Assembly (NCBI GenBank): GCA_042571645.1
Contig: JBHPFW010000001.1
Coordinates: 25,589 to 89,588, forward strand
Source of the DNA: Nanobdellota archaeon
Lineage (GTDB): Archaea; Nanobdellota; Nanobdellia; Woesearchaeales; JBHPFW01
DNA length: 64,000 nucleotides
Direction: 5' to 3'
This document shows positions 3,577 to 37,212 of the stretch, piece by piece. The position numbers and the translations under genes were made by a program. The notes below the pieces were generated by a model. The model saw nothing but the letters and a program-made list of their open reading frames with translations, was not told where the DNA came from and made no database searches. How positions within the stretch are numbered: the stretch's first letter is position 1; each line of letters starts with the position of its first letter.

Positions 3577-3682
3577 GATTTTTTAGTTAATTCTTTTAAT
3601 CTTTTTTCTAATTTTTATGATAGTTCTTAGTCATCTATTACACAAACTTTTTAAATTACATAACCTGATTTCATTAAATAAA

Positions 3683-4903: not shown

Positions 4904-4922
4904 AAAAGCGGAGGAAAATAAA

Positions 4923-5240
4923 ATGGTTAAGGAACTAACTGAAGAAACTTATGAAGATGCTCTAGGTGAAGAACTCCCTATATTAATAGATTTCTGGGCT
5001 CCTTGGTGCGGTCCATGTAATATGCTGACTCCTGTTATTGAAGAACTATCAGAAGAATACCAGGGAAAACTCAATTTCTATAAAGTAAATACTCAAGACA
5101 ATCAAACTTTAGCAGAAAAGAATGGCATAAGAGGCATTCCCTGCTTAGTAATATTCAAAGAAAACAAAGAAATTGGCAGAATTGTTGGTGCATTGCCAAA
5201 GGAATCTTTGAAAACTAAGATTGACGAGATTCTGGGTTAA
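4923..5240 (+). CDS. trxA: Thioredoxin
   Basis: 105 aa, canonical WCGPC active site, SD GGAGG upstream. Confidence 0.9.
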   Translation: MVKELTEETYEDALGEELPILIDFWAPWCGPCNMLTPVIEELSEEYQGKLNFYKVNTQDNQTLAEKNGIRGIPCLVIFKENKEIGRIVGALPKESLKTKIDEILG

Positions 5241-17370: not shown

Positions 17371-18081
17371 ATGCAAAGAACATATTTTCCGCCGAGAGTG
17401 CCAGAAATAAAAAGTAGATTGCTGGATGAAGCTTATATAGAAATCTATAAATCTAGAGCGGATATTATAAAACAATTCGATACTGGACAAGCATGTTTTA
17501 TGGGCGGGTCTATTGATTATAATCCCGGTCTGATTCTGGATGTAGCATGTGGATGCGGCGGTTCTTCTTATAATATAGCGAAGAAATTCCCTGATTCAGA
17601 AGTAATTGGAATAGACAAGGACGAATCAGCTCTAGAAGTTGCAAATGAACTTTTTAGTGATCTTGAAAATATAAGCTTTGAGTCAGGAAATGTTTATGAC
17701 TTAAAAAGATATCGAGGTGCCGCAAGCATAGTAAGTGTTCTTAACTCCTTACATCATTTTAACAATTTGAGGTTAGCATTAAAACAAATTTATGATTCCT
17801 TGCAGCAAGGAGGAGAGTTCTTCTTCCAGGATTTGGATCGTATGGCGCAAGATAGTTTTTTGGAAAAAATGGTTATTGGCGGCTATATTCTTTCAAGAAT
17901 ACTAATCCCTGATAAGGTATACTTAAAATTGGTTAAAAGGGATGCCCTTTTTTTAAGCCTTTTATCCTCTGTAGCTGCTTATACCCCTTTAGAAATTAAA
18001 CGTGCCCTCGAAAAAGAGAATTTTTCTGTTAATTTTATTGAACCTATAGAAGAGTCATATAGAGGATTTGCCTCTAAGTAA
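17371..18081 (+). CDS. Class I SAM-dependent methyltransferase
   Basis: Motif I ILDVACGCGGSS, motif post-I GIDKDESAL. Confidence 0.75.
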   Translation: MQRTYFPPRVPEIKSRLLDEAYIEIYKSRADIIKQFDTGQACFMGGSIDYNPGLILDVACGCGGSSYNIAKKFPDSEVIGIDKDESALEVANELFSDLENISFESGNVYDLKRYRGAASIVSVLNSLHHFNNLRLALKQIYDSLQQGGEFFFQDLDRMAQDSFLEKMVIGGYILSRILIPDKVYLKLVKRDALFLSLLSSVAAYTPLEIKRALEKENFSVNFIEPIEESYRGFASK

Positions 18082-18093
18082 GTAAGAAATAAA

Positions 18094-18236
18094 TGAGCCC
18101 GAGAGGATTCGAACCCCTGACCTGCCGGTCCCTGGCCAGAGTTGCAATAGCAGACTCTTGAAGCCGGCCGTACTATTTGCCTTAAGGCAAACCCACAAAT
18201 CGCAGATTTGTTGTATCCAGACTATACTACGGGCCC
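18094..18236 (-). tRNA. tRNA with two introns (D-arm region about 41 nt; anticodon loop 28 nt). Best BHB fold gives tRNA-Arg(UCG)
   Basis: Read on the minus strand: acceptor GGGCCCG/CGGGCTC, D arm GTAT-AGTCTGG..TA-GTAC, anticodon stem GCCGG/CCGGC, variable AGGTC, T arm AGGGG-TTCGAAT-CCTCT, discriminator A. No encoded CCA. 143 nt = 74 + 41 + 28. Confidence 0.8.
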
Positions 18237-18347
18237 ATATTAGCTAGCATGATTGGGGTATTTAAAAGATTTATGGCGAAAATGGTCATTAAATCACCAA
18301 AAATCATGAGAAAACTTAAAAATAACCCCTTATTACCTTATTTAAAA

Positions 18348-19154
18348 ATGTTAAATAGGCTAATCGGATTTATTGGGGCTGGAAAAATGGCTCAAGCACT
18401 TATCACGAGTTTGCTAGATACCAATACAGTAGGTTGTGGGCAAATTATTGTTGGTAATAGAAACCAGGAAAAGCTTGAATTACTGCAAAAAGAAACCTGT
18501 GTACAAGTAGCAGCTAACAATATTGAAGTAGCTAAAAAATCAAGTATCTTATTTCTTACAGTTAAACCGCAAGATATGGATTCATTATTGGATGAAATAA
18601 AGGATACTGTAAAAGAAGACCAGATCATAATCTCAATAGCTGCAGGTATTAGTATAGAACAATTAGAATCAAAACTTAAAGCGAAAGTAGTAAGAGTGAT
18701 GCCTAACACTCCCTGCATTGTTGGAGAAATGGCTGCTGGTTATTCATTTGGAAAAGGAATAAAGAATGATGATAAAACTGCAGTTGAAGAATTGCTTAAT
18801 GCTGCTGGAGTTGCAATTGAAGTTGAAGAAGAAAAACTTGATGCAGTTACTGGACTTAGTGGTTCTGGGCCTGCATTTGTTGCATTACTAATCCAAGCAT
18901 TTCAGGAAGCAGGAACTAATCAAGGTCTCAATAAAGAAGAATCTACTAAATTAGCAGTCCAAACTTTCTTAGGTACAGCAAAACTTTTGAAAGAAAAAGA
19001 AATCTCTGCAGAGGAATTAATCAAAATAGTTGCCAGCCCCGGTGGCACAACTGAAAAAGGTTTAGAAGTACTTAATAATTCTAATATCAAAGAACTTATT
19101 GAAAATGCAGTAGTTGCTGCAGCAAGAAGAAGCAAAGAGCTAAGAAGCAAATAA
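18348..19154 (+). CDS. proC: Pyrroline-5-carboxylate reductase
   Basis: IGFIGAGKMAQAL Rossmann start, PNTPCIVGEMAAGY, SPGGTTEKGL. The track start (18249) was moved to the ATG at 18348. Confidence 0.85.
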   Translation: MLNRLIGFIGAGKMAQALITSLLDTNTVGCGQIIVGNRNQEKLELLQKETCVQVAANNIEVAKKSSILFLTVKPQDMDSLLDEIKDTVKEDQIIISIAAGISIEQLESKLKAKVVRVMPNTPCIVGEMAAGYSFGKGIKNDDKTAVEELLNAAGVAIEVEEEKLDAVTGLSGSGPAFVALLIQAFQEAGTNQGLNKEESTKLAVQTFLGTAKLLKEKEISAEELIKIVASPGGTTEKGLEVLNNSNIKELIENAVVAAARRSKELRSK

Positions 19155-19175
19155 TTATATGTAATTGTGATTAAC

Positions 19176-20483
19176 ATGAATGTAACAGATATGGCTAAAA
19201 AAGCAAGAGAATCCTCACTAAAATTAGCTAATTTAGATACTAATACAAAAAATAAAGTACTTGAAGCTATGGCTGTTGCTATTGAAGAAAATACTCAACA
19301 AATTCTTGAAGCTAATAAAAAAGATCTTGATGAAGCTAAAGTACTAGTTGAAAAAGGTGAAATGAGTAATGCTTTATACAAAAGATTAGTTGCAGATGAA
19401 TCTAAAATAAAACAAATGGCTGAAAGCATAAGAAGTGTTGCTAAACTTGAAGATCCTGTTGGTAAAAAAATCTCTGGTTTAGAACTTGACAAAGATCTTG
19501 AACTCTACCAAATAACCTGTCCTATCGGTGTTATTTGTACTATTTTTGAATCCAGACCAGATGTTGTACCCCAAATTACAAGCTTATGCTTAAAATCAGG
19601 TAATGCAGTATTACTTAAAGGGGGCTCTGAAGCTATTAACACAAATAAAGTAATGGTTGAACTACTAGCAAACTCTGGAACAGATGCTGGGGCTCCTGAA
19701 GATTTTGTACAATTATTAGAAACTAGAGAAGATATTCAAAAAATACTTGATTTAGATGAATATGTTAGCTTAATTATTCCTCGGGGAAGTAATGCCTTAG
19801 TGAAACACATTCAAAATAACACCCGCATTCCAGTACTAGGTCATGCTGATGGAATTTGTCATGTTTTTGTTGATAAAGAAGCAGATATAGACCTGGCTGT
19901 TAACATTAGTGTTGATTCTAAAACTCAATATCCTGCTGTCTGCAATGCAATGGAAACTCTTTTAGTAGATGAAAGTGTTGCTGAAGAATTCTTACCTGGA
20001 GCAATCAAGCAGCTCCTAGAAAAAGAAGTAGAGATCAGAGGAGATGAAACTACAACTAAAATTGCAGAAAGTAACAATCTCAAGATCAATAAAGCCGAAG
20101 AAAAGGATTGGTCAACAGAATATAATGACCTAATATTATCAATCAAAGTAGTTAAAGATCTTGATGAGGCTATTTCCCATATAAACAAATTTGGCTCAGG
20201 ACATACAGATTCAATTGTCACAAAAAACCAAGATACTGCTAAGAAATTCCTTGATGAAGTTGATTCTGCTTGTGTATTCCACAACTGCTCAACAAGATTC
20301 AGTGATGGGTTTAGATTTGGCAAAGGAGCAGAAGTTGGCATTTCTACAAATAAGATCCATGCTAGAGGACCTGTTGGATTAGAAGGCCTAGTAATTTACA
20401 AATACAAACTTTATGGAAAAGGCCAAATTGTTGCAGAGTATGGATCAGAAGGGAAAAAGTTTACTCATAAAAAGATAGATTAA
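19176..20483 (+). CDS. proA: Gamma-glutamyl phosphate reductase
   Basis: ESRPDV, LIIPRGSNALV, catalytic AVCNAMETLLV, GHTDSIVT, STRFSDGFRFG. Confidence 0.9.
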   Translation: MNVTDMAKKARESSLKLANLDTNTKNKVLEAMAVAIEENTQQILEANKKDLDEAKVLVEKGEMSNALYKRLVADESKIKQMAESIRSVAKLEDPVGKKISGLELDKDLELYQITCPIGVICTIFESRPDVVPQITSLCLKSGNAVLLKGGSEAINTNKVMVELLANSGTDAGAPEDFVQLLETREDIQKILDLDEYVSLIIPRGSNALVKHIQNNTRIPVLGHADGICHVFVDKEADIDLAVNISVDSKTQYPAVCNAMETLLVDESVAEEFLPGAIKQLLEKEVEIRGDETTTKIAESNNLKINKAEEKDWSTEYNDLILSIKVVKDLDEAISHINKFGSGHTDSIVTKNQDTAKKFLDEVDSACVFHNCSTRFSDGFRFGKGAEVGISTNKIHARGPVGLEGLVIYKYKLYGKGQIVAEYGSEGKKFTHKKID

Positions 20484-20495
20484 GAAACATTCTAC

Positions 20496-21965
20496 TTAAA
20501 TATAAGAAATCACAATTCTGTCAACATTCAATTTATCCAAATTTTTAGGCAGTTTTTCATTTATATAATACTGAGTATTTCCCTTTAAGATTAATCTATG
20601 AGGGATAGTTATGTTATCGAGAACAAAACTGTAATTCATGCAATCTGCCCTGCAATCATCAACCGTGATGTGTTTTCTTTTTGATAATTTATCACAATTT
20701 GCACTTAAACACAACCTAGTTGTTGTTGTGTAAACATATGGAAGATGTAAAGATGATTTTAAGCCGGATTTTCTTAGATCTAAATTAATACCCTGAACAA
20801 CATTATCCAGTTCTATCCTATTTACCCTGTTTTGTTTAAGAAATTCCTGCAAAACACTATTTTCAACATTAGTCTGTTTGAAATAATCATATGCCTTCCT
20901 TGGAATTTCTCCTTTTAATAACTCTGTTCTCGGACCTTTTTTTTGTTCAACAAGGAGCCTCCCAAGCGATAGTTTTAGATGATTCAATAATTTATCACCT
21001 ACAATTCTATTTAACAAACCAAAGTCATTAACAATAACTTCTGCATTAGGCATATTAATACTAATTAATCTAAGAATTCCGATATAAGCCTGGAAATATT
21101 TCTCAGTAAGAAAAGGAGTGACAAAAGTAAGTTTCTTATTCTTTTGCTTGCACAAGTCAAGTACAAATAACATTTCATCTTTAGAAGGAATTAATCTTTG
21201 ACAAAATTCATCACCAAAATAAATCCTTTCAAATGAATCCAACAAAGTATGAGATTTATTATCAATTTTTAATTTTCCTTTAAGTTGTATCAAGTCTTTT
21301 ACCCAAATAGCTTTTTCGCAATTCTTGGGGATGTCAAAATTAAGTTTTTCCAGCTTCTTTTCCTTTCTCCTCTGTAAACTAATAAAAAATCCTTTTTTTT
21401 TCTCAAATTTTATATCATTAAGATAATTAAAATCAAAATACAATCCAAAAAGTCTTGTCAGCTGATTTTTGTTTGAAAAGAATATCCCCTCATAATCATC
21501 ATTTTTATCTGAGAAACATCTAAGGAATATTTTGCCATCATTCTTCAGAACTCTGTCTATTTCTGAGAGATATTTTCTTCTTTTATTTGGCAAAATTGAA
21601 TGATAACAACCTATATCGATAAGGATATCAAATTCATTATCTTTGAAGAGAAGTTCTAAGGCATCTCCAACAAATAATTTTGAGGATTTGCATTTTTTTT
21701 CTGCTAATCTTATTGCTGTTTCAGAAATATCTATTCCAGTAACATTAAAACCGTTTTTCTCGAGGAAAGCTGTGTTTTTTCCATCTCCGCAGCCAAGGTC
21801 CAGAATTTTTAATTTCTGATAATTTTTTTCTTTTTTTAGATCTCTAACTATCTGCTTTATTTCTCTATCTGGTCTGTTACCCCATGGAAGTCTGCTTACT
21901 TTATTATTCTCATAAAAGCTTTCCCATTTCTCTTTTGGTGTTTGTTCTTTTATTGGCATTTTCAT
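20496..21965 (-). CDS. Fusion protein: N-terminal class I SAM methyltransferase plus C-terminal UbiV(YhbV)-like U32-family domain
   Basis: N-terminus: ILDLGCGDGKNTAFLEKNGFNVTGIDISETAI. C-terminus: RIYFGDEFCQRLIP (compare YhbV IYLGEAVCSKR) and LPYVYTTTTRLCLSANC...DDCRADC (compare YhbV LPLAYSARCF...DECETCC), giving four Cys placed like the UbiV 4Fe-4S ligands. Confidence 0.7.
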   Translation of the reverse strand: MKMPIKEQTPKEKWESFYENNKVSRLPWGNRPDREIKQIVRDLKKEKNYQKLKILDLGCGDGKNTAFLEKNGFNVTGIDISETAIRLAEKKCKSSKLFVGDALELLFKDNEFDILIDIGCYHSILPNKRRKYLSEIDRVLKNDGKIFLRCFSDKNDDYEGIFFSNKNQLTRLFGLYFDFNYLNDIKFEKKKGFFISLQRRKEKKLEKLNFDIPKNCEKAIWVKDLIQLKGKLKIDNKSHTLLDSFERIYFGDEFCQRLIPSKDEMLFVLDLCKQKNKKLTFVTPFLTEKYFQAYIGILRLISINMPNAEVIVNDFGLLNRIVGDKLLNHLKLSLGRLLVEQKKGPRTELLKGEIPRKAYDYFKQTNVENSVLQEFLKQNRVNRIELDNVVQGINLDLRKSGLKSSLHLPYVYTTTTRLCLSANCDKLSKRKHITVDDCRADCMNYSFVLDNITIPHRLILKGNTQYYINEKLPKNLDKLNVDRIVISYI

Positions 21966-21980
21966 ATTTTACATTATAGC

Positions 21981-22919
21981 TTAATAAAAAGAGCTGTTTT
22001 TCGGCAATGAAAAACCGAATGAATTCTCAAATAATTCTTCTGCTTTTTCTTGATAATCTTTCTTGCTGCTAATTTTGGTTAATTCTTTCACTAAACTTAC
22101 CACTTTTGCCTTTTCTTTTGTTGGAAATCTTCTTCCAGATATCTTAAGATGACTTACTCCTGCATTCTTAAGTTTAGGTATGTCTTTTACTGCAAAAAAG
22201 AAGCCCAAAGGCAGATTTCTTAGTCGTTGATTAATTATTCTTGCCTTATCCTTGCTTGCCCCTATAACTTCAAACTGATTATATAAATTACAGATATGAT
22301 CCACGCCAAGAATGTCCTCTGTACCATGCTGATATCCGCAAAATCCGTCCTCATTCCTGCATAAGTCATTTGCAACAAAACATTCAAACTCATTGTTTTT
22401 GTTTTTCTGGACTATCGGCTCAATTTCCTCTATTTTTATGTGCCTAGGTAAAACAATTTTTTTTGCTCCTAATCCCGAATAGAATTTTGCAGATTCTGAA
22501 TTATAAACAGATGCACAAGTGCTGATACATATTTTGAAAGTATTTAACAAATCCTTATTTTCTTTCTTATTCAACCACAATAATAAGGACAAATCAGAGA
22601 TAATAATTCCATTAACCTTGTATTCTGCTAATTTTCTTATTTCTTTTTCTAATTCTTTCAACTGTTCTTTTGTATAATATGGAGAATTAAGAGTATAATA
22701 AAGAATTTTTTTCTTTTTTCTGCATTCCTCAGAGATTACCTCTATTTCCTTAAAACTTTTTACCTGAGATTGCTCAAAATAACGTCGGTTAGGTGAAGCG
22801 AGATAGCCATATTTCTTTTTCCACCAACTTGTTAATGCCCCGCAGTAAAATTCATCTGCCCCTGCTTTCGCTAAAGGTGCTATTTCCTCAACTGATTTTA
22901 TTGGAGTTGTTATTTTCAT
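21981..22919 (-). CDS. Peptidase-U32-family protein (UbiU/RlhA/TrhP-like putative Fe-S hydroxylase subunit)
   Basis: AKAGADEFYCG N-terminus. ECFVANDLCRNEDGFC matches the U32 signature E-x-F-x2-G-[SA]-[LIVM]-C-x4-G-x-C except at the G-[SA] positions. Confidence 0.75.
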   Translation of the reverse strand: MKITTPIKSVEEIAPLAKAGADEFYCGALTSWWKKKYGYLASPNRRYFEQSQVKSFKEIEVISEECRKKKKILYYTLNSPYYTKEQLKELEKEIRKLAEYKVNGIIISDLSLLLWLNKKENKDLLNTFKICISTCASVYNSESAKFYSGLGAKKIVLPRHIKIEEIEPIVQKNKNNEFECFVANDLCRNEDGFCGYQHGTEDILGVDHICNLYNQFEVIGASKDKARIINQRLRNLPLGFFFAVKDIPKLKNAGVSHLKISGRRFPTKEKAKVVSLVKELTKISSKKDYQEKAEELFENSFGFSLPKNSSFY

Positions 22920-22937
22920 CTTTATCTCTCTTTAAAA

Positions 22938-24116
22938 CTATCTCCATGATTGCCAAACATTCTTCCTGCCAGGACTTATGGCTTGATCAAAATCTATAAC
23001 ATATAATTTTTTTCCTTCCTTATCAAAACAAAAATTACCAGAATGTAAATGCCCATGAAATATTTTAAGATCGTCTAAAACACGAATTATTTTTTCTCTA
23101 ACTTTATTATATTCCATGAATTTATCCACATCCTGAATCTCACTAATTGAAACCAGATCCCTACCTAAAACCTTACTGTATACCTTAATAGATTCATCTT
23201 TCTGCTTATAGGCCATTAATTCTCCGGAAGAAGGACTACGTACAATTGGTTCGACAGGTATATAATCAAATCCCGCTTTCTTCCATGCCTCTTCTGCTTC
23301 AAAAGCCTTTTTCCAAGCAAGAAAAGCTTTTTCAGATATTACCCTAACAATTATTTTCCCAGCTAAATTTCCACCAAGTAAAATTATATCTGAACCAGTT
23401 TTTTCAAATATCTTTCTTGTAGCACTAGATCTTCTAAAGCCTCTCCTATCCTGCTCAAAAAACTCAGCACGTTGTTTAGAATATAATTTCAAATGTTCTG
23501 TCTTATCGGAGAGAAGTTCAAGAAAGTTTTGTGCACTAGCCTGACTAAGAGGATAATCTGTTCTATGAAGGAAAAGTTCAACTAGCGACACACTTTCAAC
23601 AGATTTTAACTGAAATAAAGAACCAATTGTCATGGAACACAGGTAATCTACATGATCTACATCAGTATTATCTACATCAATAAAAAGAAGTTGCTCTACT
23701 AGGATAGCGCAGGAATCTTTCTGATATTTAGCCAAACCCAAACCACGCAAAGCCTCATCTTGCTTGTATAGATTTCTATGCCTTAAAAGGACGGCAAATT
23801 TCTTAAGTTTCTTTGGTAAAGAATTAACTATTTTATTAAATTCTTTTTCAGACAATCGTCTATTTAATATATAAAATTCTTTTTCATTTATTATCTTTGG
23901 CACTAATTCTGATTTGAACCGTTTTAATTGTTTTCTAAATTCTTCTAGAGTGATTTTATTTTTACAGTAACGCTCAATAAAACCATATTCAAAGAGTTTT
24001 TCCCTTTTATCATCCGACAAAAAAGCCAGAGGATCTATTTTTATTCTATTAAAAGAACTAAAGATATTTGGAAAATTAATAGAAATGATTGGATAGAGAA
24101 ATGGTATTTGATTCAT
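22938..24116 (-). CDS. Atypical protein-kinase-fold (RIO/Kdo-kinase-like) protein with large helical N-terminal region
   Basis: C-terminal catalytic-loop-like HGHLHSGNFCF and a metal-binding VIDFDQA. Upstream GKIIVRVISEKAF...EAE resembles the beta3-Lys / helix-C Glu. The ATG overlaps the upstream stop (ATGA). Confidence 0.55.
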   Translation of the reverse strand: MNQIPFLYPIISINFPNIFSSFNRIKIDPLAFLSDDKREKLFEYGFIERYCKNKITLEEFRKQLKRFKSELVPKIINEKEFYILNRRLSEKEFNKIVNSLPKKLKKFAVLLRHRNLYKQDEALRGLGLAKYQKDSCAILVEQLLFIDVDNTDVDHVDYLCSMTIGSLFQLKSVESVSLVELFLHRTDYPLSQASAQNFLELLSDKTEHLKLYSKQRAEFFEQDRRGFRRSSATRKIFEKTGSDIILLGGNLAGKIIVRVISEKAFLAWKKAFEAEEAWKKAGFDYIPVEPIVRSPSSGELMAYKQKDESIKVYSKVLGRDLVSISEIQDVDKFMEYNKVREKIIRVLDDLKIFHGHLHSGNFCFDKEGKKLYVIDFDQAISPGRKNVWQSWR

Positions 24117-24391
24117 TTCTTATCACCCTTAACTTCATCCAACTTTGTCTTTAAAACAAGATTACAATAACCATAAACCATTTTTTTGTCTAGTTTGCCT
24201 TTTCTCGGAAATAATTCAACGATGATATAAGAAGAATCCCCTTCTGATTGTCTCTGAAAAAAAGAGAATGTCATTGAAGAGTTTATATCATCATAATATT
24301 TTGTTGCTGCTGCTCCAATATGATGAGTTGTATAAAAATGCCTGCTTAATTTCAATCTTGCTTTATTTTTGAGAAACTTTAATCTTAACAT
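24113..24391 (-). CDS. Hypothetical small protein (92 aa), operon member
   Basis: ATG start, translationally coupled (ATGA) to the downstream kinase-like gene. No family recognised. Confidence 0.4.
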   Translation of the reverse strand: MLRLKFLKNKARLKLSRHFYTTHHIGAAATKYYDDINSSMTFSFFQRQSEGDSSYIIVELFPRKGKLDKKMVYGYCNLVLKTKLDEVKGDKK

Positions 24392-24418
24392 TACACTAAC
24401 AACCCCCTAGCAATCAAA

Positions 24419-24682
24419 TTATTTTGATTTTCCTTTTGATGTAATCAACAAATCCATGAATTTATTACAAGTATCTTCAATTGAACCCTCAGATCTAAGC
24501 CTCAACTCAATTAGTAATTCCTGCTCAGGATCTCCATCAAGAATTATTACTGCTTTTTCCATGATTTCTTCAGCTGCCTTATAGATCTTATCTAATGAAT
24601 AAATGCCTGGATCAAGGCTTATTATGGCAGCATTCCGCTTTTTGTCAATCTCAATATTTTCCAGCATATTGTATTTTTGCAT
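24419..24682 (-). CDS. Hypothetical small protein (87 aa)
   Basis: C-terminal part of track ORF 24419..25054, starting at MQKYNMLENIE. The longer N-terminal extension is antisense to proB and was rejected. Confidence 0.4.
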   Translation of the reverse strand: MQKYNMLENIEIDKKRNAAIISLDPGIYSLDKIYKAAEEIMEKAVIILDGDPEQELLIELRLRSEGSIEDTCNKFMDLLITSKGKSK

Positions 24683-24767
24683 ATATCCTTCTGGTAATGG
24701 ATTGTTTTTAAATTTAGCCTCTTTATGGACTAAAACTTTATAAATAAACTGGGCTTGATTTGATAAT

Positions 24768-25889
24768 ATGAGAGACACAATAAAACATGCTAAAAGAATT
24801 GTAATCAAGATAGGTACAAGTGTCATAACTGACAAAAAAGGTAGAATAAATTCTAAATATATGAAAAATCTTGCCAAGCAAATTATGGGTATAAAAAGGC
24901 AAGGCAAAGAAATTATCATGGTTAGTTCTGGTGCTATTGGCTCTGGCATGGAAGAACTCCAACTCAACCAACGCCCAAGACTCATCCCTTTAAAACAAGC
25001 TACAGCAGCTATTGGCCAGCCATTAATGATGCAGGCATGGAGAGATGTATTCAAGAAATATAAGCAGTCAGTAGCTCAGCTTCTTATAACATATAAGAAT
25101 TTCTCTCACAGAGAGACATATCTTAATTTAAGAAACGCATTAGGCAAACTCCTGGCTTTAGGAGCTATACCTGTTGTGAATGAAAATGATGTTGTTAGCA
25201 TAGAAGAAATAGATGCAACCTTTGGGGATAATGATAAACTTTCCAGTATGGTGGCTACTAGAATGGATGCTGATCTTCTGATAATATTATCTGATGTTGA
25301 CGGACTTTATGACCATAATCCTAAAAGAAGAAAAGATGCAAAACTCATAAACACAGTCGAAAAAATCACTAAGGAAATTGAAAAAATGGCTTTTGATGAC
25401 AAAAGCTCCACTAGAGCTGTAGGGGGAATGAAAGCAAAAATTGAAGCTGCAAAAATCTGCATGGAAGACTGCTGTCAAATGATAATAGCAGACGGCTCTG
25501 AAAAAAATATACTTACAGAGATTTTCGAAGGTGAAGAAATTGGCACAATATTCTTATGCTCTCCAAAAAAACTCTCAAACAAAGAAAAATGGATATCTCA
25601 TTCAAGATCAAAAGGAAGCTTAATTATCGATGATGGAGCAGAAAACGCTCTAAAAAACAAAAGAAGTTTATTGCCTTCAGGAGTCAAAGGATTAAAAGGA
25701 AGTTTTGAAGTAGGAGATGTTGTAACTCTTATCAATAATAAGAAAGAAATTGGCAAAGGCCTTACTGATTATTCCTCAAGTGAACTCAAGAGAATCAAAG
25801 GCAAAAAAACAGACAAAATAGAGAAAATCCTGGGCTATAAGAATTATGATTCTGTTATAAGAAGGGAAAATCTTATAATAAAGGAATAA
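24768..25889 (+). CDS. proB: Glutamate 5-kinase with C-terminal PUA domain
   Basis: RIVIKIGTSVITD, VSSGAIGSG, NENDVVS, GGMKAKIEAA, C-terminal PUA-like LLPSGVKGLKGSFEVGDVV. Confidence 0.9.
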   Translation: MRDTIKHAKRIVIKIGTSVITDKKGRINSKYMKNLAKQIMGIKRQGKEIIMVSSGAIGSGMEELQLNQRPRLIPLKQATAAIGQPLMMQAWRDVFKKYKQSVAQLLITYKNFSHRETYLNLRNALGKLLALGAIPVVNENDVVSIEEIDATFGDNDKLSSMVATRMDADLLIILSDVDGLYDHNPKRRKDAKLINTVEKITKEIEKMAFDDKSSTRAVGGMKAKIEAAKICMEDCCQMIIADGSEKNILTEIFEGEEIGTIFLCSPKKLSNKEKWISHSRSKGSLIIDDGAENALKNKRSLLPSGVKGLKGSFEVGDVVTLINNKKEIGKGLTDYSSSELKRIKGKKTDKIEKILGYKNYDSVIRRENLIIKE

Positions 25890-25920: not shown

Positions 25921-27375
25921 ATGGCAAAAGAAAAAGAACTTACACAGGGAATTACTGTAAAAAAAGATGAGGATTTTGGTGAGTGGTACTCCCAAGTAAT
26001 CCAGAAATCAGAATTAGCTGATTATAGTGCTGTCTCGGGTTGTATTGTGTTTAGGCCTTATTCTTATGAAATCTGGGAAAGAATCAAGCAATTAATGGAC
26101 GAACGTATAAAGAAACTTGGTGTGCAAAATGCTTATTTCCCATTATTCATTCCTGAATCCTTGTTAACAAAAGAAGAAGAGCATGTTGAGGGTTTTGCTC
26201 CAGAAGTAGCTTGGGTTACACATGGAGGAAATACAGAACTTGGTGAAAGACTAGCTGTTAGACCAACATCTGAAACAATTATGTATGATTCTTATTCAAA
26301 ATGGATCAGAAGCCACAGAGATCTTCCACTCAAATTAAATCAATGGAACTCTGTCGTAAGATGGGAATTCAAGCATCCTGTGCCGTTCCTTAGAACCAGA
26401 GAATTCCTTTGGAATGAAGGACATACTGCTTTTGCCACAAAAAAAGAAGCCGAACAGGAAATTAAAGATATTCTTGAAGCTCAAAAAGATGTTGTTCACA
26501 ATAATTTAGCATTATATGGCATAACTGGCAGAAAATCTCAGAAAGAGAAATTTGCTGGAGCAGAATATAGCATGGCCATGGAACATTATATGCCTTCTGG
26601 AAAGGCCATCCAAGGTTCTGATGCTCATTTTGATGGTCAGAATTTTGCTAAAGCTTATGATATAAAATTCTTGGATAAAGATGGAAAATCACAATATGTT
26701 TGGCAAAATACCTGGGCTATTACAACAAGAATGATTGGAGTAATGATTGCTGTTCACGGCGATGATAAAGGTTTAGTGATACCTCCAAGAATGGCTCCTA
26801 CTAAAGCAGTTATTGTTCCTATTTTATTTGACAAAACCAAAAAAGAAGTTCTTGAAAAATGCAATGAAATCAAAAAAGAACTGGAAAAGAAAAACCTTGC
26901 AGTACATCTTGACGATCGTGAAGAAGTCAGTGCGGGCTGGAAATACAATGAATGGGAGTTAAAAGGCATTCCAATAAGAATTGAACTCGGCCCTAAGGAT
27001 CTAGAAAAACAACAAGCAGTTGTTGTAAGAAGAGACACTGCAGAGAAAGAATTTATTCCACTAAAAGATGTTTCTAAAAAAGTAAATGATTTGCTTGAAA
27101 ACATGCAAAAAGATCTGTTTGAGAAATCCAAAAAAATGATGCTTGATGCTATTGTCAGTGTTAAAACCGAAGAAGAATTCAAAAAAGTTATTGAATCTGA
27201 CAAGATTGCTAAAGCTTATTTCTGCAATGACCCTAAAGAAGAAGAAATAATAAAAGACAAATATGGCGGTGCAAAGACTTTGTGCAGTCCACTTGAAGAC
27301 TCAGCCAAGAAAGGAAAGTGTATTTTTACTGGTAAAGAAGATTGCCAGATATTTTTGTTTTGTAAGACTTATTGA
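25921..27375 (+). CDS. proS: Prolyl-tRNA synthetase, archaeal/eukaryotic type
   Basis: Class II motifs (FRPYSYEIWE, RPTSET, FLRTREFLWNEGHT), anticodon-binding domain, and a C-terminal Zn-like domain ending in the conserved terminal Tyr (..CKTY), followed by TGA. Confidence 0.92.
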   Translation: MAKEKELTQGITVKKDEDFGEWYSQVIQKSELADYSAVSGCIVFRPYSYEIWERIKQLMDERIKKLGVQNAYFPLFIPESLLTKEEEHVEGFAPEVAWVTHGGNTELGERLAVRPTSETIMYDSYSKWIRSHRDLPLKLNQWNSVVRWEFKHPVPFLRTREFLWNEGHTAFATKKEAEQEIKDILEAQKDVVHNNLALYGITGRKSQKEKFAGAEYSMAMEHYMPSGKAIQGSDAHFDGQNFAKAYDIKFLDKDGKSQYVWQNTWAITTRMIGVMIAVHGDDKGLVIPPRMAPTKAVIVPILFDKTKKEVLEKCNEIKKELEKKNLAVHLDDREEVSAGWKYNEWELKGIPIRIELGPKDLEKQQAVVVRRDTAEKEFIPLKDVSKKVNDLLENMQKDLFEKSKKMMLDAIVSVKTEEEFKKVIESDKIAKAYFCNDPKEEEIIKDKYGGAKTLCSPLEDSAKKGKCIFTGKEDCQIFLFCKTY

Positions 27376-29955
27376 TTATTTCTTGTCTTTTTTACCTACA
27401 TCCAAATCAATTACTCTCCGGGTCGGGTCTGCATTATATCCTGATCTATTTAATTCAATTTCTCTAATTTCAGGCAAATCTCCCAATCTACCCATCCCCA
27501 TAGTATCTGGTAGAGGCGGTGGTTGAGATGTTTGTGTTTTAATTGCAGTTAAATTATACAATGCCTCCACCATGTTTCTTGTACCAGAAGTTGTTGATCT
27601 AACCCAAGAATCTCTATCAACCTTTTTATCAACAGTAAATTGAGCTGCATGAGAAACATTTCCTGTCACTACCAGATAAACTGTGCCTTCTGCTGCAGAA
27701 CTTAATTGAGATAACCTATTCTGACAACTATAACCAAAAACCTTCAAGTCCCCAATATTTAAATACTTCCCGAGTCTTTCCTGATAGTCAATTCCTTTTC
27801 TACCGCCAATGATAACTAGCCTGTTTAAATACGGTCTTGAATCTTCTGGTACTTCAATAGAATCCGGATCATATGCAAGAGGATAATCTGCTGGTTTATC
27901 AAAATCATCAGAAATTGCATTAATCTCATAAAAATATCTTATCAAAAGGTCCTTTTTTTCCTCTCTATCAGCAATATTGGATAATTGAACTAAAAAAGGC
28001 CAATAAAACATTTCTCCCTTAACTGACACATATCTTCTTCCCCTTACTAAATCTATGTCATCTCCAATATCAATATAGCCAGCTGAATTTCTGATAAGGT
28101 CCTCCTCCAATCTCCACAAATCTCTTCTTATTTGTATGAGATCTTTCAAATGATCAGAGACGAAACTAATATCTTCTTCTAGTAAAGTAATAAGATCCTG
28201 ATTAAAGGGATGTTCCTTTCTGACAGACATGCTCAATTTATTATAAATTTTATCATATTTTCCTTGGCGTTCAATTGATTCATAAATATCAATTATTTCT
28301 TCCATAGCTGCAAAATCTCGCTTAGCATAAATCTCACCAAGTTTAGGAAACATAGCTCTTAACTCATTTCCTCTCTTCAAATCTTCTCTTAGTTCTTGAG
28401 CAATATCAACATAAACTTCATGATTTTTTAGAAAGTCTACTAGAATAATTGCATTGTTGACATTATCTTTGAGCACCTCTGCTACAACAGGAATACGATT
28501 TTTCCCTTTACTAACTAAATAACTCAGGCGCCTATCACCATCTAAAGCCAACCACTCATTAATATTTCCCTCATCTATATATTTAGAAAGAGGCTGATCC
28601 TCGCCATAATAATAAGTTGACAAAAAGCCACATACTGTTTCTGGTTCCTCAAATGAACCAAACTCCTCTGAAAATCTCGCTCTAAGACTAAAGTCTGATT
28701 TATTCATCGAACTTAAAACAAATTGAGGATTAGGAGAATTTCTACCTCGCTTATATTTCTTGTGGAATTTCCCAAGTTCTTCATTTAATCCTATCTTTTT
28801 TTCAATTGTGCCAGAATATAATTCATAAACCTCTAAAAATGAAGCAATCTCATTTCCTATAATATGAGGAAGTAAAAATTGCTTCCTGTCCATATCAACG
28901 ACTATATTGATAATTCTTTCTAACTCAATAGTCTTAACATAAGTTGTTTGCAAATAATCTCTGATATCTTCTTGTTCAATTCCCCTATAAATATCTCTAG
29001 CATATTTTAAATTTTCAATTACATATCCCAATGCAAGATTTCTTAATAAATCCAAAGAAGATCTTTTTGTTTCAATTACTTTGGCCAAATAAGGAAATGC
29101 CTGAGCAAACTCATTTCGTTTTTCTTTAACTCCAACTCCTGGAAGAATCTCTTTGACTTCATCTTGCTGTTCTTTCATCCTATAAAATAAACTAATATCG
29201 TAATCAACTCGTATATCATCCAAAGAATCATTCCATTCAGAATTCCCTAATTCCGGATTTTTAAGCAGTGCTTCAAGAGATTTATGTGCAATCTGACTCT
29301 TTTTTGTTTGAGAATTAAATCGCTCTTGTAATTTCATTGGCTCTGGCAAGAAATACATCTTTTGCCTGAAAAAAGGCAAACTATCTAATAACTGAGTTAT
29401 GAATAAAAGATGTTTATTATATGTTTTTCCCCACCCATAAATATTTTTCCGATAATAAGATCTAGCTGAACCCCACTTTTTCATATATGTTGGTGAGCTA
29501 AACGGAAAACCAGCTATTGATTTAAACCTTGGAAAATTTTTAAGCATATACGGATCTTGTTTTATTTGATTTTCATAAAACAAAATTTTTCTTGTAGTGT
29601 CCATGTTAAGACAATTTGGACCATCTGAATGCAAATAAGCAGCCCACAAGAAATATTTAGACTCAAATGGCAAATCCAACTCATCAAGGAATGATGGGGG
29701 TTTATCTTCTACTATTAAGCCAGGATAATCAAAATAATCCATAAGTAAACAAATATCAACTAATGGGAAAAAATCATGAGACCCTGGAACAACATCAATA
29801 GCTCTTCTTTCTAAAGGATCAACATATTTAGTAGGCAAAGGCATGTAATCATACTTCATACGCGCTGAATTACTTTCTTTCCCTGGTTTCTTCTTTACCG
29901 TTTGTTTCTTCTTAGATCTTTTATTATTTTTATCACTAAAATATCTTTTCGCCAT
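27376..29955 (-). CDS. Large orphan protein (859 aa) with C-terminal DUF2325-like module
   Basis: Uninterrupted 2.58-kb ORF, ATG start, basic N-terminus. C-terminal RLVIIGGRKG...VYLVVTGNVSHAAQFTVDKK resembles DUF2325 (from memory). The rest is unrecognised. Confidence 0.7.
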   Translation of the reverse strand: MAKRYFSDKNNKRSKKKQTVKKKPGKESNSARMKYDYMPLPTKYVDPLERRAIDVVPGSHDFFPLVDICLLMDYFDYPGLIVEDKPPSFLDELDLPFESKYFLWAAYLHSDGPNCLNMDTTRKILFYENQIKQDPYMLKNFPRFKSIAGFPFSSPTYMKKWGSARSYYRKNIYGWGKTYNKHLLFITQLLDSLPFFRQKMYFLPEPMKLQERFNSQTKKSQIAHKSLEALLKNPELGNSEWNDSLDDIRVDYDISLFYRMKEQQDEVKEILPGVGVKEKRNEFAQAFPYLAKVIETKRSSLDLLRNLALGYVIENLKYARDIYRGIEQEDIRDYLQTTYVKTIELERIINIVVDMDRKQFLLPHIIGNEIASFLEVYELYSGTIEKKIGLNEELGKFHKKYKRGRNSPNPQFVLSSMNKSDFSLRARFSEEFGSFEEPETVCGFLSTYYYGEDQPLSKYIDEGNINEWLALDGDRRLSYLVSKGKNRIPVVAEVLKDNVNNAIILVDFLKNHEVYVDIAQELREDLKRGNELRAMFPKLGEIYAKRDFAAMEEIIDIYESIERQGKYDKIYNKLSMSVRKEHPFNQDLITLLEEDISFVSDHLKDLIQIRRDLWRLEEDLIRNSAGYIDIGDDIDLVRGRRYVSVKGEMFYWPFLVQLSNIADREEKKDLLIRYFYEINAISDDFDKPADYPLAYDPDSIEVPEDSRPYLNRLVIIGGRKGIDYQERLGKYLNIGDLKVFGYSCQNRLSQLSSAAEGTVYLVVTGNVSHAAQFTVDKKVDRDSWVRSTTSGTRNMVEALYNLTAIKTQTSQPPPLPDTMGMGRLGDLPEIREIELNRSGYNADPTRRVIDLDVGKKDKK

Positions 29956-30778: not shown

Positions 30779-30900
30779 TTTAATTGGTCAAATAATCAAC
30801 CATCTGGTTATAAAAATGACCAGAAGTATATAAATTTTGCGGATTAGTTTAAAAAGCATTATTGATAAGGTTTAAATAAGACCTATTGATCCCCGGTTTA

Positions 30901-31734
30901 ATGGCAAAAGAAGAAGAAGTCATACCTCTTACTTTAGATGATCTGGATCGTATACAACATAGACAAATAATCACAAAACTTAAAGAATTATATAGGGGGG
31001 ATACTCTAAGGATTCTTGATATTGCAACAGGAATGAGTGCAACAAATCCAGGAATAATAAAAAAATTATCTGAAGAAAACATCCCCTTTGAATTTGTTCT
31101 TTCAGATATCTCTCCTGGTTTATTAGATATGGGTTATTCATTCGCTACAGATTATCTTGGACAAACTGGAAAACTTATTTGCGTATTAGCAGATGCAACA
31201 GATTTAAGAAAAGAACTAACAGATATTCCTGATTTCCACAAAGATGGTGCAAATACTATTAAACTTGAAAAAATTTTAAGAAACCCCCATTACAAATTTT
31301 TAAGAACAGGCTATGATGGATTAAAAAGAAAGGTAAATTTTAATGATGCAAGTTTTGATTTGGTGCTTGGAGAAACACCATACTTCAGCATGCAATTATA
31401 CGCAGAATCATTAAGAGAAGCTGGAATGATAGTAGATTTTAAAGACGCAGTCAAAGAAGTCGCAAGAGTTCTTAAACCTGGAGGATATCATATAATTATG
31501 GAAGAAGAAACTGAATCTATTAATAAAGAAGTGGAACGTACTCCAGATGCAATGAAGAAAGCACAAAAAAACTACACTGCCAATATCATTGCTGAATTAA
31601 ATAAACATCTTAAACCAATATCAATTATTTCAGCAATGGAAAAACATACTACCCACAGAGAATATGACCCAACACTCATTCGCCAACCAGGAGACATTAT
31701 AAAATATGCTCTCATCGTATATCAAAAAGAATAA
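30901..31734 (+). CDS. Class I SAM-dependent methyltransferase
   Basis: ILDIATGMSATNPG motif I-like, VLKPGGYHIIME. The track start (TTG 30886) was moved to the ATG at 30901. Confidence 0.7.
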   Translation: MAKEEEVIPLTLDDLDRIQHRQIITKLKELYRGDTLRILDIATGMSATNPGIIKKLSEENIPFEFVLSDISPGLLDMGYSFATDYLGQTGKLICVLADATDLRKELTDIPDFHKDGANTIKLEKILRNPHYKFLRTGYDGLKRKVNFNDASFDLVLGETPYFSMQLYAESLREAGMIVDFKDAVKEVARVLKPGGYHIIMEEETESINKEVERTPDAMKKAQKNYTANIIAELNKHLKPISIISAMEKHTTHREYDPTLIRQPGDIIKYALIVYQKE

Positions 31735-37092: not shown

Positions 37093-37212
37093 TCTGATTA
37101 TTTAAATACTGATTTAAATATGGCTTTTAAACTACTCATTTTTCTTGATAAACTTTAAATAACCTACCAAAAACCCGCTTTAGGACCCTTATAGTGCTTG
37201 AGGTTGGGTAAT

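Follow-up and report, generated by a model that had tools for sequence, protein, structure and literature searches.

The proA–proB interval of this Nanoarchaeota MAG holds five co-directional genes on the minus strand, flanked on both sides by proline genes in the opposite orientation. An ORF check on the window, by which we mean the whole 64,000-nucleotide stretch of DNA that was analysed, confirmed the layout described in the original prediction, including the ORF boundaries, the gaps (15, 18 and 27 nt) and the ATGA at 24113-24116, where the start codon of the 392-aa gene overlaps the stop of the 92-aa gene. The features are as follows.

18249-19154, plus strand: proC, flank on one side
19167-20483, plus strand: proA, flank on the same side as proC
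20496-21965, minus strand: 489-aa ORF
20496..21323, minus strand: putative UbiV-like, highly divergent U32-like Fe-S domain (by Cys, hhalign and fold), residues 215-489 of the 489-aa protein plus stop codon
21351..21965, minus strand: class I SAM methyltransferase domain (Methyltransf_11, TPMT), residues 1-205 of the 489-aa protein
21981-22919, minus strand: 312-aa ORF, UbiU-like U32 subunit (PF01136 match)
22938-24116, minus strand: 392-aa ORF
22938..23519, minus strand: atypical kinase-like domain of the 392-aa protein (OspG_kinase match)
23520..24116, minus strand: N-terminal half of the 392-aa protein, helical, HEAT-like in homologs
24113-24391, minus strand: 92-aa ORF, HxsD-family small protein type B, a distant paralog of type A
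24419-24682, minus strand: 87-aa ORF (internal ATG within a longer TTG ORF), first operon gene, HxsD-family small protein type A by family-level TIGR03976/NF038315 matches
24683..24767, no strand: divergent intergenic region of 85 bp between the first operon gene and proB, putative promoter region
24768-25889, plus strand: proB, flank on the other side
25921-27375, plus strand: proS, flank on the same side as proB

Reading the sequence directly, we found an A/T-rich stretch (tttaaaaa) that precedes the ATG at 24682 by ~30 nt, and the region 24683..24767 is presumed to be the promoter region of the operon.

The 312-aa protein is a clear U32 protein whose closest relative is UbiU. A profile search matched it to PF01136 (E 1.2e-27), and the profile of its family in turn matched E. 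coli UbiU over the full length at 1e-45. The near-canonical U32 signature reported earlier, ECFVANDLCRNEDGFC, is indeed present and begins at residue 179. The three invariant Cys of the family (C187-x6-C194-x15-C210) are retained together with C26. The family-conserved CxxC (242, 245) and CX4C (305, 310) pairs are missing, a loss that the earlier description had overlooked; the four positions are F, K, L and S here and Cys in 96-98% of 56 relatives, so that the cluster content of this subunit is uncertain. The U32 protein of locus L055 likewise lacks the CX4C pair, which makes that pair at least dispensable within this subclade.

As had been read from its sequence, the 489-aa protein joins a class I SAM methyltransferase to a second domain. 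Its N-terminal half matched Methyltransf_11 (E 1e-20) and TPMT (1e-10) in a profile search, the SAM motif ILDLGCGDGKN is intact at residues 54-64, and the closest solved relatives of the domain are the archaeal small methyltransferases 6mro and 8gdu. The fusion recurs elsewhere: the methyltransferase lies N-terminal to the UbiV-like domain in the window, P0002, P0069 and L089, while P0113 has a methyltransferase of this subfamily on the C-terminal side (35% identity, E 6e-21). The existence of two independent domain orders argues for functional coupling.

The family of the second domain (~275 aa) is large and unannotated; it comprises more than 130 clusters, with 511 matches in species-representative genomes. 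It had been proposed that profile searches would place both proteins in the U32 family; this held for the 312-aa protein, but the second domain of the 489-aa protein was matched by none of the Pfam or NCBIfam U32/UbiV models, a result that formally counts against the proposal. The Cys of its GDEFC, RLC, DDC and ADC motifs are residues 255, 419, 438 and 442, and in alignments of 36 and 50 homologs all members retain C255, C419 and C442, and at least 90% retain C438. Of the claim that this domain lines up with UbiV, the conservation of the four Cys thus stood up across the 50 homologs, and the four Cys fall on UbiV C39/C180/C193/C197 in a colinear alignment, but one that is not statistically significant, with hhalign giving a probability of 2% against a shallow UbiV profile. 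The Cys ligands of UbiV, established by mutagenesis (PMC6747719), are spaced C-Xn-C-X12-C-X3-C, whereas those of the domain follow C-Xn-C-X18-C-X3-C. Against the family of its U32 partner, hhalign returned 90% probability for the domain. The AF2 model (pLDDT 92.3) found 5d88 (U32 Mk0906) as its top PDB match in Foldseek (E 8.8e-5), with a TM-score of only ~0.5 and generic TIM barrels ranking close behind. Mk0906 is the sole U32 protein with a solved structure. Taken together, the profile-profile, fold and genomic evidence points to a very divergent U32-like protein, a weaker basis than a Pfam-level match.

The proposed operon pairing of a UbiU-like with a UbiV-like protein is supported by the co-occurrence of the two genes in many genomes. 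A UbiU-like gene is immediately adjacent on the same strand for 44 of the 74 UbiV-like genes in genome loci, and of 80 metagenome loci collected with the U32 gene as seed, 53 have a UbiV-like gene next door. Across adjacent pairs (n=103), a mirror-tree comparison of pairwise identities gave r = 0.90, against a permutation maximum of 0.14; the partners co-evolve. Most pairs elsewhere sit in other contexts, either rSAM/B12-rSAM/DegT or FAD_binding_4/CCG/ETF, and since these contexts differ, the pair is a generic module whose substrate is not transferable from one context to another.

Both small proteins are assigned to the HxsD family on family-level profile matches. Taken alone, the 87-aa protein reaches only E 0.1 against TIGR03976 and the 92-aa protein E 0.06 against NF038315; at family level, NF038315 matches 9 of 14 members (best 7.9e-13) and TIGR03976 matches 7 of 14 (best 3.6e-10), and L009_95 connects the two types (E about 1e-5). 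Their HxsD identity had escaped the original prediction. Type-A homologs occupy the same position upstream of the U32 gene in L089, L055, L093, L094 and L001, and are found as well in the HXS-like loci L009, L046 and L015; type B directly follows type A in L089, L055, L001, L009, L093 and L094. The order HxsD-A, HxsD-B, U32, (MTase::)UbiV-like is complete in L089, L001, L055, L093 and L094, and partial in L087. Overall, six to seven other loci, from separate samples and other anaerobes, carry this four-gene core. In the Iainarchaeal loci L009 and L046, a full HXS-like set (two rSAM-SPASM genes and an HxS-repeat peptide) sits 1-4 kb from the U32 / UbiV-like pair. Neither an rSAM gene nor an HxS-repeat peptide was found within the window.

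The C-terminus of the 392-aa protein matched OspG_kinase (3e-7, 30.9 bits, cut-off 27) and, weakly, RIO1 and APH. Its HGHLHSGN (residue 354) and IDFD (residue 374) motifs agree with the kinase core described earlier, with the reservation that His replaces what we take to be the catalytic Asp of RIO/Bud32/OspG-type kinases. Among 535 homologs the N-termini are variable, with PF13646 HEAT_2 in the full-length homologs P0132, P0133 and P0140, while HGHxHxxNF and IDFD are conserved family-wide; the substitution is thus a feature of the family rather than a sign of decay. No kinase-like homolog was present in about 170 related loci, the homologs being located elsewhere. The suggested conservation of a five-gene neighbourhood therefore holds for the four core genes and fails for the kinase, which is a lineage-specific insertion in the core and not a member of the module.

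Our tentative interpretation, to which we assign a probability of roughly 45%, is that of an O2-independent hydroxylase pair with a fused methyltransferase and HxsD-like adaptors. The UbiU-like protein and the UbiV-like domain would form a two-subunit U32-type enzyme, a putative heterodimer whose subunits would bind iron-sulfur clusters and be co-transcribed with the two small proteins, that may carry out O2-independent hydroxylation by analogy with UbiU-UbiV, TrhP1-TrhP2 and RlhA. The fused TPMT/Methyltransf_11-type methyltransferase would subsequently add a methyl group to the hydroxyl so formed. Hydroxylation in the characterised U32 systems requires prephenate. In vitro hydroxylation has so far been shown for no U32 enzyme (PMC10990095). 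HxsD binds the radical-SAM Fe-S enzyme HxsC for processing of the protein HxsA (PMC13128918). The small proteins may similarly serve as adaptors, docking on the Fe-S barrel enzyme and presenting its substrate. These partners point to a protein substrate, and the context as a whole leans weakly towards a peptide or protein over RNA or a quinone. The closest precedent is B. subtilis yrrM(trmR)-yrrN-yrrO, in which hydroxylation by a U32 pair is followed by methylation by the operon partner (PMC6599085); the view that no characterised system has such an architecture had overlooked it. The B. subtilis methyltransferase is unfused and COMT-like, whereas that of the window is fused to the UbiV-like subunit and is of the TPMT/Methyltransf_11 type.

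Of the alternatives, tailoring of a small molecule fares best, though we consider it unlikely. An aromatic or other metabolite (a cofactor, lipid head group, sugar-linked or scavenged compound) would be hydroxylated and then methylated, with the HxsD-like proteins as scaffold or carrier, loosely as UbiT in UbiTUV. The substrate of UbiU-UbiV is itself a small lipid-soluble aromatic, the methyltransferase is nearest to small-molecule enzymes (TPMT, TehB, UbiE/UbiG-type, 6mro), and most pairs elsewhere lie in biosynthetic-looking clusters (radical SAM, B12-radical SAM, DegT aminotransferase, PEMT, GT2). However, pro genes flank the window operon and no further biosynthetic genes occur in or beside it, a SCP2/UbiT-like protein is absent, DPANN genomes have little biosynthetic capacity, and the HxsD family has so far been seen solely in protein maturation.

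The RNA substrate preferred in the original prediction found no positive evidence, and we regard it as doubtful. The U32 pair would hydroxylate a pyrimidine of tRNA or rRNA (ho5U/ho5C type), which the fused methyltransferase would convert into the methoxy derivative, and the system would be the archaeal equivalent of TrhP1/TrhP2-TrmR. Quinone synthesis is unlikely in a reduced DPANN-type genome, the neighbourhood is a housekeeping one that includes exosome subunits and proS, and all characterised U32 functions other than UbiU-UbiV act on RNA; yrrM-yrrN-yrrO follows the same logic (PMC6599085, PMC11574389). Against this, Pfam searches found Peptidase_U32_C (PF16325), present in the TrhP-type P0129 and P0130, nowhere in the module and an RNA-binding domain in none of the five proteins, the score against the TrhP NCBIfam model was 47 (cut-off 534), and neither the methyltransferase type nor the HxsD-family partners fit. 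We know of no report of mo5U or ho5C from archaeal RNA.

It is improbable that the module, while real elsewhere, is decayed or repurposed in this genome and here inactive or non-hydroxylating. The four Cys replaced in the U32 protein, the His at the expected catalytic Asp of the kinase-like protein and the reverse orientation within the pro gene run would fit such a decay. The five ORFs are nevertheless intact, tightly packed and partly overlapping, the remaining U32 Cys, all four UbiV-like Cys and the SAM motif are retained, the His substitution is family-wide and the CX4C loss is shared with L055. Chance adjacency of unrelated genes that form no functional unit, to which the kinase-like gene, never found with U32 genes elsewhere, and the heterogeneous contexts of the U32 pair might be taken to point, is very improbable in view of the core gene order shared by six or more further loci from separate samples, the fusions in two orders, the mirror-tree correlation and the 15-27 nt gaps with one ATGA overlap, and for the four core genes it is effectively refuted by their recurrence.

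All five minus-strand ORFs of the original prediction are present, with coordinates that match exactly.

Genes of the module (positions counted within the stretch)
20496-21965, minus strand: ORF of 489 aa, methyltransferase fused to a UbiV-like domain (MTase::UbiV-like)
21981-22919, minus strand: ORF of 312 aa, UbiU-like U32 protein
22938-24116, minus strand: ORF of 392 aa, kinase-like C-terminus
24113-24391, minus strand: ORF of 92 aa, putative HxsD-family protein, type B
24419-24682, minus strand: ORF of 87 aa, putative HxsD-family protein, type A

The genes are separated by 15, 18 and 27 nt, except that those for the 92-aa and 392-aa proteins share an ATGA overlap. Plus-strand genes flank the module, proC and proA to one side of it, proB and proS to the other. 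Further out, the genes are of archaeal housekeeping type (NucS, two exosome RNase PH subunits, a GHMP kinase and an arginase-family protein), and GC content is flat across the region at ~0.31-0.35.

The 312-aa protein scored 97.1 bits against the U32 family PF01136 (cut-off 22.4, E 1.2e-27, profile positions 1-209 of 233). Its nearest NCBIfam models were UbiU and TrhP, both far under their equivalog cut-offs, at 59.9 bits against 440 for UbiU (NF047963) and 47.3 bits against 534 for TrhP. A profile of the protein and its relatives nevertheless aligned over the full length with E. coli UbiU at 1e-45, and because of this combination we describe the protein, judged by its sequence, as UbiU-like and not as a UbiU ortholog. 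Membership among the RNA hydroxylases of the TrhP/RlhA type was rejected, since the equivalog score lies under the cut-off and the U32 C-terminal domain PF16325 was absent from the protein in the Pfam scan; two distant matches, P0129 and P0130, carry that domain. A word-indexed homolog search seeded with the 312-aa protein returned 10 proteins only, and PDB sequence searches with this protein and with the profile of the UbiV-like domain returned no U32 entry.

Eight cysteines are conserved among 56 partner-type U32 proteins (numbering of the 312-aa protein): C187, C194 and C210 in 100%, C26 in 88%, a CxxC (242, 245) in 98% and a CX4C (305, 310) in 96%. The reference 4Fe-4S patterns for U32 proteins were CX6CX15CX3/4C, or CX6CX16CX38C in UbiU. 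The 312-aa protein keeps C187-x6-C194-x15-C210 and has a private cysteine at C180, while F, K, L and S replace cysteine at 242, 245, 305 and 310. In its relatives the CxxC sits 32-35 residues after the C187-x6-C194-x15-C210 motif, at the place of the F and K. The nearest relatives are without C26 and keep the CxxC, the reverse of the 312-aa protein. From these alignments, C26 and C180 could be candidate substitutes for the missing cluster ligand, and the changes possibly reflect either exchanged ligands or a lost auxiliary metal site.

The C-terminal domain of the 489-aa protein, predicted to be the second U32 member of the pair, is not placed in the family by standard Pfam and NCBIfam profiles: residues 215-489 matched none of these models, including PF01136 and the UbiV models NF047965 and NF011991. 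When 50 members of its family were scanned, two touched PF01136, with E no better than 0.068, while NF011991 matched one (E 0.046). The family consists mostly of stand-alone proteins of ~263 aa annotated as 'hypothetical', with 131 clusters in the protein collection and 511 confirmed matches among species-representative genomes. Archaeal hosts include Bathyarchaeia, Iainarchaeota, Undinarchaeota, Nanoarchaeota, Hadarchaeota, Helarchaeota and Methanosarcinales, and bacterial hosts include Thermodesulfobacteriota, Chloroflexota, Omnitrophota and Planctomycetota, among others; we take these to be anaerobic lineages.

An hhalign comparison of the C-domain family with the partner U32 family reached a probability of 90% (E 1.5e-6, 79 columns), and phmmer matched the 312-aa protein directly to one UbiV-like family member (from locus L036) at 5e-5. 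The AlphaFold2 model of the domain (pLDDT 92.3, pTM 0.90) had as its top Foldseek match in the PDB the U32 protein Mk0906 (5d88, E 8.8e-5, TM ~0.5), the sole U32 structure returned by the structure searches, with generic TIM barrels ranking next. These sequence and model comparisons suggest, with modest strength, that the domain shares remote homology or fold with U32 proteins.

The four cysteines noted in this domain proved to be conserved in alignments of 36 and 50 homologs, with C255, C419 and C442 invariant and C438 present in at least 90%, giving the pattern CX163CX18CX3C. UbiV has the pattern C-Xn-C-X12-C-X3-C, and its experimentally defined cluster ligands are C39, C180, C193 and C197 (PMC6747719). 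In a colinear hhalign alignment to a UbiV profile the four cysteines of the domain fall on these ligands; the score was not significant (probability 2%) and the alignment was used for colinearity alone. The low probability is explained by the shallowness of that profile, which holds enterobacterial sequences at least 85% identical throughout, among the matches listed. On the available sequences and model, we regard the domain as U32-like, UbiV-like in design and too divergent for membership under current models.

Gene order across genomes ties the two proteins together. In 84 genome or contig loci, a same-strand UbiU-like gene directly adjoins 44 of 74 UbiV-like genes (upstream in 36, downstream in 8), an adjacency that mirrors ubiU-ubiV and yrrN-yrrO. 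Approached from the U32 side, in a metagenome scan with an alignment of the U32 subclade as query, a UbiV-like gene adjoins in 53 of 80 loci. In a mirror-tree analysis of 103 adjacent pairs, the pairwise identities of one protein correlate with those of the other at r = 0.90, against a maximum of 0.14 in 300 permutations. The U32/UbiV-like pair is a conserved, co-evolving unit. With adjacency and the mirror-tree correlation as genomic proxies, the two subunits are predicted to form a heterodimer carrying 4Fe-4S clusters. This partner family, which Pfam and NCBIfam miss, is widespread, and its members mostly pair with a UbiU-like protein and evolve together with it; two-subunit U32 enzymes therefore appear far commoner than the proteobacterial UbiUV and Firmicute TrhP1/P2 suggest. 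Recognition of the family would also improve annotation, as members are now labelled 'hypothetical' or just 'methyltransferase'.

The pair occurs in several kinds of surroundings. In Bathyarchaeia, Hadarchaeota, Helarchaeota and Chloroflexota it lies beside FAD_binding_4 and CCG-domain genes (GlcD/GlcF-like), sometimes with ETF genes (loci L005, L007, L010, L017, L023, L030, L033, L052, L053, L080 and others), and these neighbours might encode the electron acceptor chain still missing for U32 hydroxylation. The pair of Omnitrophota, Planctomycetota and some DPANN genomes is part of a large cluster (L003/L004, L018, L022, L034, L036, L037, L079), which encodes several radical SAM and B12-binding radical SAM proteins, a DegT aminotransferase, a POR-like TPP enzyme and a PEMT-like membrane methyltransferase. 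UbiV-like genes without an adjoining U32 gene are found mostly in Thermodesulfobacteriota (L026, L042, L043, L045, L076 and L039, L047, L059, L066, L070, L071, L075), with Ham1/HlyD or GT2/cupin genes as neighbours; a further copy, which is paired, is present in several of these genomes.

The fusion to a methyltransferase is confirmed and also recurs elsewhere. Residues 1 to ~205 of the 489-aa protein form a class I SAM methyltransferase that matched Methyltransf_11 (74.6 bits, cut-off 21.2, E 1e-20) and TPMT (41.9 bits, cut-off 26, E 1e-10), with motif I intact (LDLGCGDGKN, residues 55-64) and 6mro and 8gdu as the closest solved structures. A methyltransferase of the TrmR (YrrM) type was rejected, as there was no Methyltransf_3/COMT-type match for the 489-aa protein among the 20 Pfam families listed. 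The methyltransferase is N-terminal in the window protein, P0002 (L087), P0069 (L001) and a 509-aa protein of L089, whereas P0113 carries a methyltransferase of the same subfamily at its C-terminus (35% identity, E 6e-21). Fusions are a small minority of the UbiV-like family; the two orders point to independent fusion events and therefore to functional coupling. The PADLOC model mad2 (mads_2) also matched the methyltransferase (residues 11-228 of the 489-aa protein, 3.4e-23), which may be generic methyltransferase similarity. Two more stand-alone class I methyltransferases are encoded in the window, at 17371-18081 and 30886-31734 (both plus strand), neither with a phmmer match to the fused domain at E 0.01 or better.

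The two small proteins at the head of the module individually scored 13-13.5 bits against the HxsD models TIGR03976 and NF038315 (cut-offs 50 and 41). Among 14 aligned type A and B homologs, however, the NF038315 'HxsD-like' model matched nine (best 7.9e-13) and TIGR03976 matched seven (best 3.6e-10), and the homolog in L089 has a precomputed weak match to PF27806 (HxsD). Types A and B are distant paralogs bridged by one sequence. By these profile matches, both proteins are putatively assigned to the HxsD family of adaptors. Several further loci show the order A, B, U32, (MTase::)UbiV-like, with the fusion in L089 and L001, unfused in L093 and L094 and partially in L087; in L055, a Methanosarcinales MAG, the unfused four-gene core is interrupted by a HATPase gene on the opposite strand.

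To date, HXS is known as an antiphage system of bacteria, where the binding of HxsD to the radical SAM enzyme HxsC serves the processing of the protein HxsA (PMC13128918). Two Iainarchaeal loci, L009 and L046, have A and B genes leading a complete HXS-like set, in which two rSAM-SPASM enzymes flank a short peptide ending in His-Xaa-Ser repeats (HEHSHLSHSSHSSY). In the related locus L015, A and B genes, similarly sized rSAM-like genes and a U32/UbiV-like pair are present, and the repeat peptide was not found.

HXS-like sets in DPANN (Iainarchaeum-type) MAGs (positions within each locus)
L009, 3710-6941: HXS-like set
L046, 1842-5323: HXS-like set
L015, 1586-5214: HXS-like set

The distance from the A and B genes down to the U32/UbiV-like pair is ~5-7 kb in each of the three loci, and in L009 and L046 the repeat peptide and the second rSAM-SPASM gene are within ~2-6 kb of the pair. 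Ahead of the set is a gene for an A24 prepilin-type peptidase; after it come an NHL-repeat protein gene and the pair. The window module resembles HXS in having small, putative HxsD-family proteins at the operon head that would partner an Fe-S barrel enzyme; the bacterial order is HxsD-HxsB-HxsC-HxsA (PMC13128918). It differs in having two HxsD paralogs in place of one and U32 proteins as its Fe-S enzymes. Pfam found no rSAM gene in the window operon, and there is no HxS-repeat ORF in any frame of the window, so that membership in HXS itself, with its two rSAM-SPASM enzymes and His-Xaa-Ser repeat protein, was rejected.

A conflict or defence role like that of bacterial HXS is a possible reading of these comparisons. 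PADLOC gave no match for the U32, HxsD-like or kinase proteins of the module. STAND/AAA NTPase, HATPase_c and NTP_transf_2 genes are frequent in defence islands. Among the unfused cores, the one in L094 is flanked or interrupted by a STAND/AAA NTPase (3619-5091, minus strand), and the one in L055 by a HATPase_c protein and an NTP_transf_2 nucleotidyltransferase (3896-4789, minus strand, and 5709-6530, plus strand).

The kinase, which had been counted as part of the module, did not hold up as a general component. The C-terminus of the 392-aa protein is a small kinase-like domain (OspG_kinase 30.9 bits, cut-off 27; RIO1 and APH weak), with 535 or more homologs whose N-termini are variable and carry HEAT_2 in the closest relatives. 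None of ~170 related loci encodes a homolog, and the three full-length relatives that could be placed, P0132, P0133 and P0140, lie in unrelated contexts, unlinked to U32 genes (homologs of the domain at 22938-23519 are labelled P0132-P0280). The general statement that the kinase belongs to the system was thus rejected, although the gene is co-transcribed in the window; it is an add-on to the core, translationally coupled in this genome through the ATGA overlap. The protein resembles RIO, Bud32 and OspG kinases in its compact fold and in its HGxLxxxN and IDFD-type motifs, and differs from them in its HEAT-like N-terminal region and in being unlinked to the U32 module in other genomes. The family-wide motif is HGHxHxxNF ... 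IDFD, which reads HGHLHSGN in the 392-aa protein with the IDFD Asp present. The His in HGHxH sits at the catalytic-Asp position of the RIO/Bud32/OspG kinases, so that an assignment to that type by its HxD Asp was rejected family-wide and kinase activity of the 392-aa protein is uncertain.

By analogy, the module is best seen as a U32 hydroxylase of two subunits whose product a methyltransferase would then modify, a variation on a known theme. It shares with UbiU-UbiV (E. coli YhbU/YhbV) adjacent longer and shorter U32-type genes with the UbiU-like one first, a UbiU-like subunit bearing C-x6-C-x15/16-C, and a UbiV-like subunit bearing an N-terminal 'Y-x-G-x-x-x-C' Cys and C…C-x3-C near the C-terminus. 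A small accessory protein also stands alongside in both, UbiT in the one and the HxsD-like proteins in the other. The differences are the UbiU score (60 against 440), a C-domain without UbiV or PF01136 match, a Cys spacing of x18 against x12, the absence of an SCP2/UbiT protein, the archaeal host and the methyltransferase fused to the UbiV-like subunit. The closest characterised architecture is B. subtilis yrrM(trmR)-yrrN(trhP2)-yrrO(trhP1), which makes mo5U34 in tRNA with a methyltransferase and two paralogous U32 proteins, both required for a hydroxylation whose new OH is then methylated (PMC6599085). YrrM (TrmR) is a separate, COMT-like methyltransferase (PMC6599085), whereas that of the window is TPMT/Methyltransf_11-like and fused. 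In addition, TrhP1 has a U32 C-terminal domain and the window module none, the second subunit of the window is far more divergent, and only the window has HxsD-like genes.

With TrhP1/TrhP2 and TrmR as precedent, O2-independent hydroxylation of the U32 type followed by SAM-dependent methylation would be the likeliest chemistry from homology and architecture, and the methyltransferase fusions offer a handle on it. To our knowledge, U32 'oxidases' are the sole enzymes that hydroxylate without O2 from an organic oxygen donor, prephenate, and only three substrates are known to us: ubiquinone precursors, tRNA U34 and 23S rRNA C2501. Prephenate is the oxygen donor of UbiUV, and since none of the U32 enzymes has been reconstituted in vitro so far (PMC10990095), hydroxylation by the module is something we infer, as the most likely activity by analogy. 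No shikimate-pathway genes were found among the window proteins scanned, and the window covers 64 kb of the genome only.

The boldest reading, to which we give roughly one chance in five, is that the HxsD-A/HxsD-B/U32/UbiV-like(::MTase) module is the first U32 system to act on a protein or peptide, and that the UbiV-like family is the missing second subunit of widespread anaerobic hydroxylases in archaea and bacteria. Adaptors borrowed from HXS would hand a polypeptide to the O2-independent hydroxylase, and the fused methyltransferase would O-methylate the product. The context leans weakly toward such a substrate because of the HxsD adaptors, the SPASM maturases and HxS peptide that related archaea encode nearby, and a fold resembling that of protein kinases; a protein substrate is credible but unproven, and the HxsD association is a testable lead to a new substrate class. 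A small metabolite is a live alternative: the methyltransferase is TPMT-like, and biosynthetic-looking contexts occur elsewhere, with rSAM/B12-rSAM/DegT and FAD_binding_4/CCG/ETF genes. The original prediction had favoured RNA, for which we obtained no positive evidence; the module lacks PF16325, its Pfam matches include no RNA-binding domain, and the methyltransferase family differs from that of TrmR. A quinone substrate, with the pair as UbiUV orthologs, was rejected because the equivalog scores fail and UbiT is absent; the annotated parts of the window contain no quinone genes. The literature we found on U32 function covers UbiUV, TrhP (and TrhP1/P2) and RlhA only, and we found in it no account of the UbiV-like family, its methyltransferase fusions or the HxsD-U32 association.

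A few further features of the window were recorded. Rfam found no ncRNA in the module region and matched the window only once, with a tRNA (18094-18236, minus strand) in which 143 nt correspond to a 71-position model, so that the gene probably contains an intron; ARAGORN reported no tRNA in the window. Adjoining proS is an 859-aa ORF at 27376-29955 (minus strand) without a Pfam match, and a 1534-aa protein at 37198-41802 (plus strand) carries BcrAD_BadFG ATPase and DUF2229 (CoA-enzyme activase) domains.
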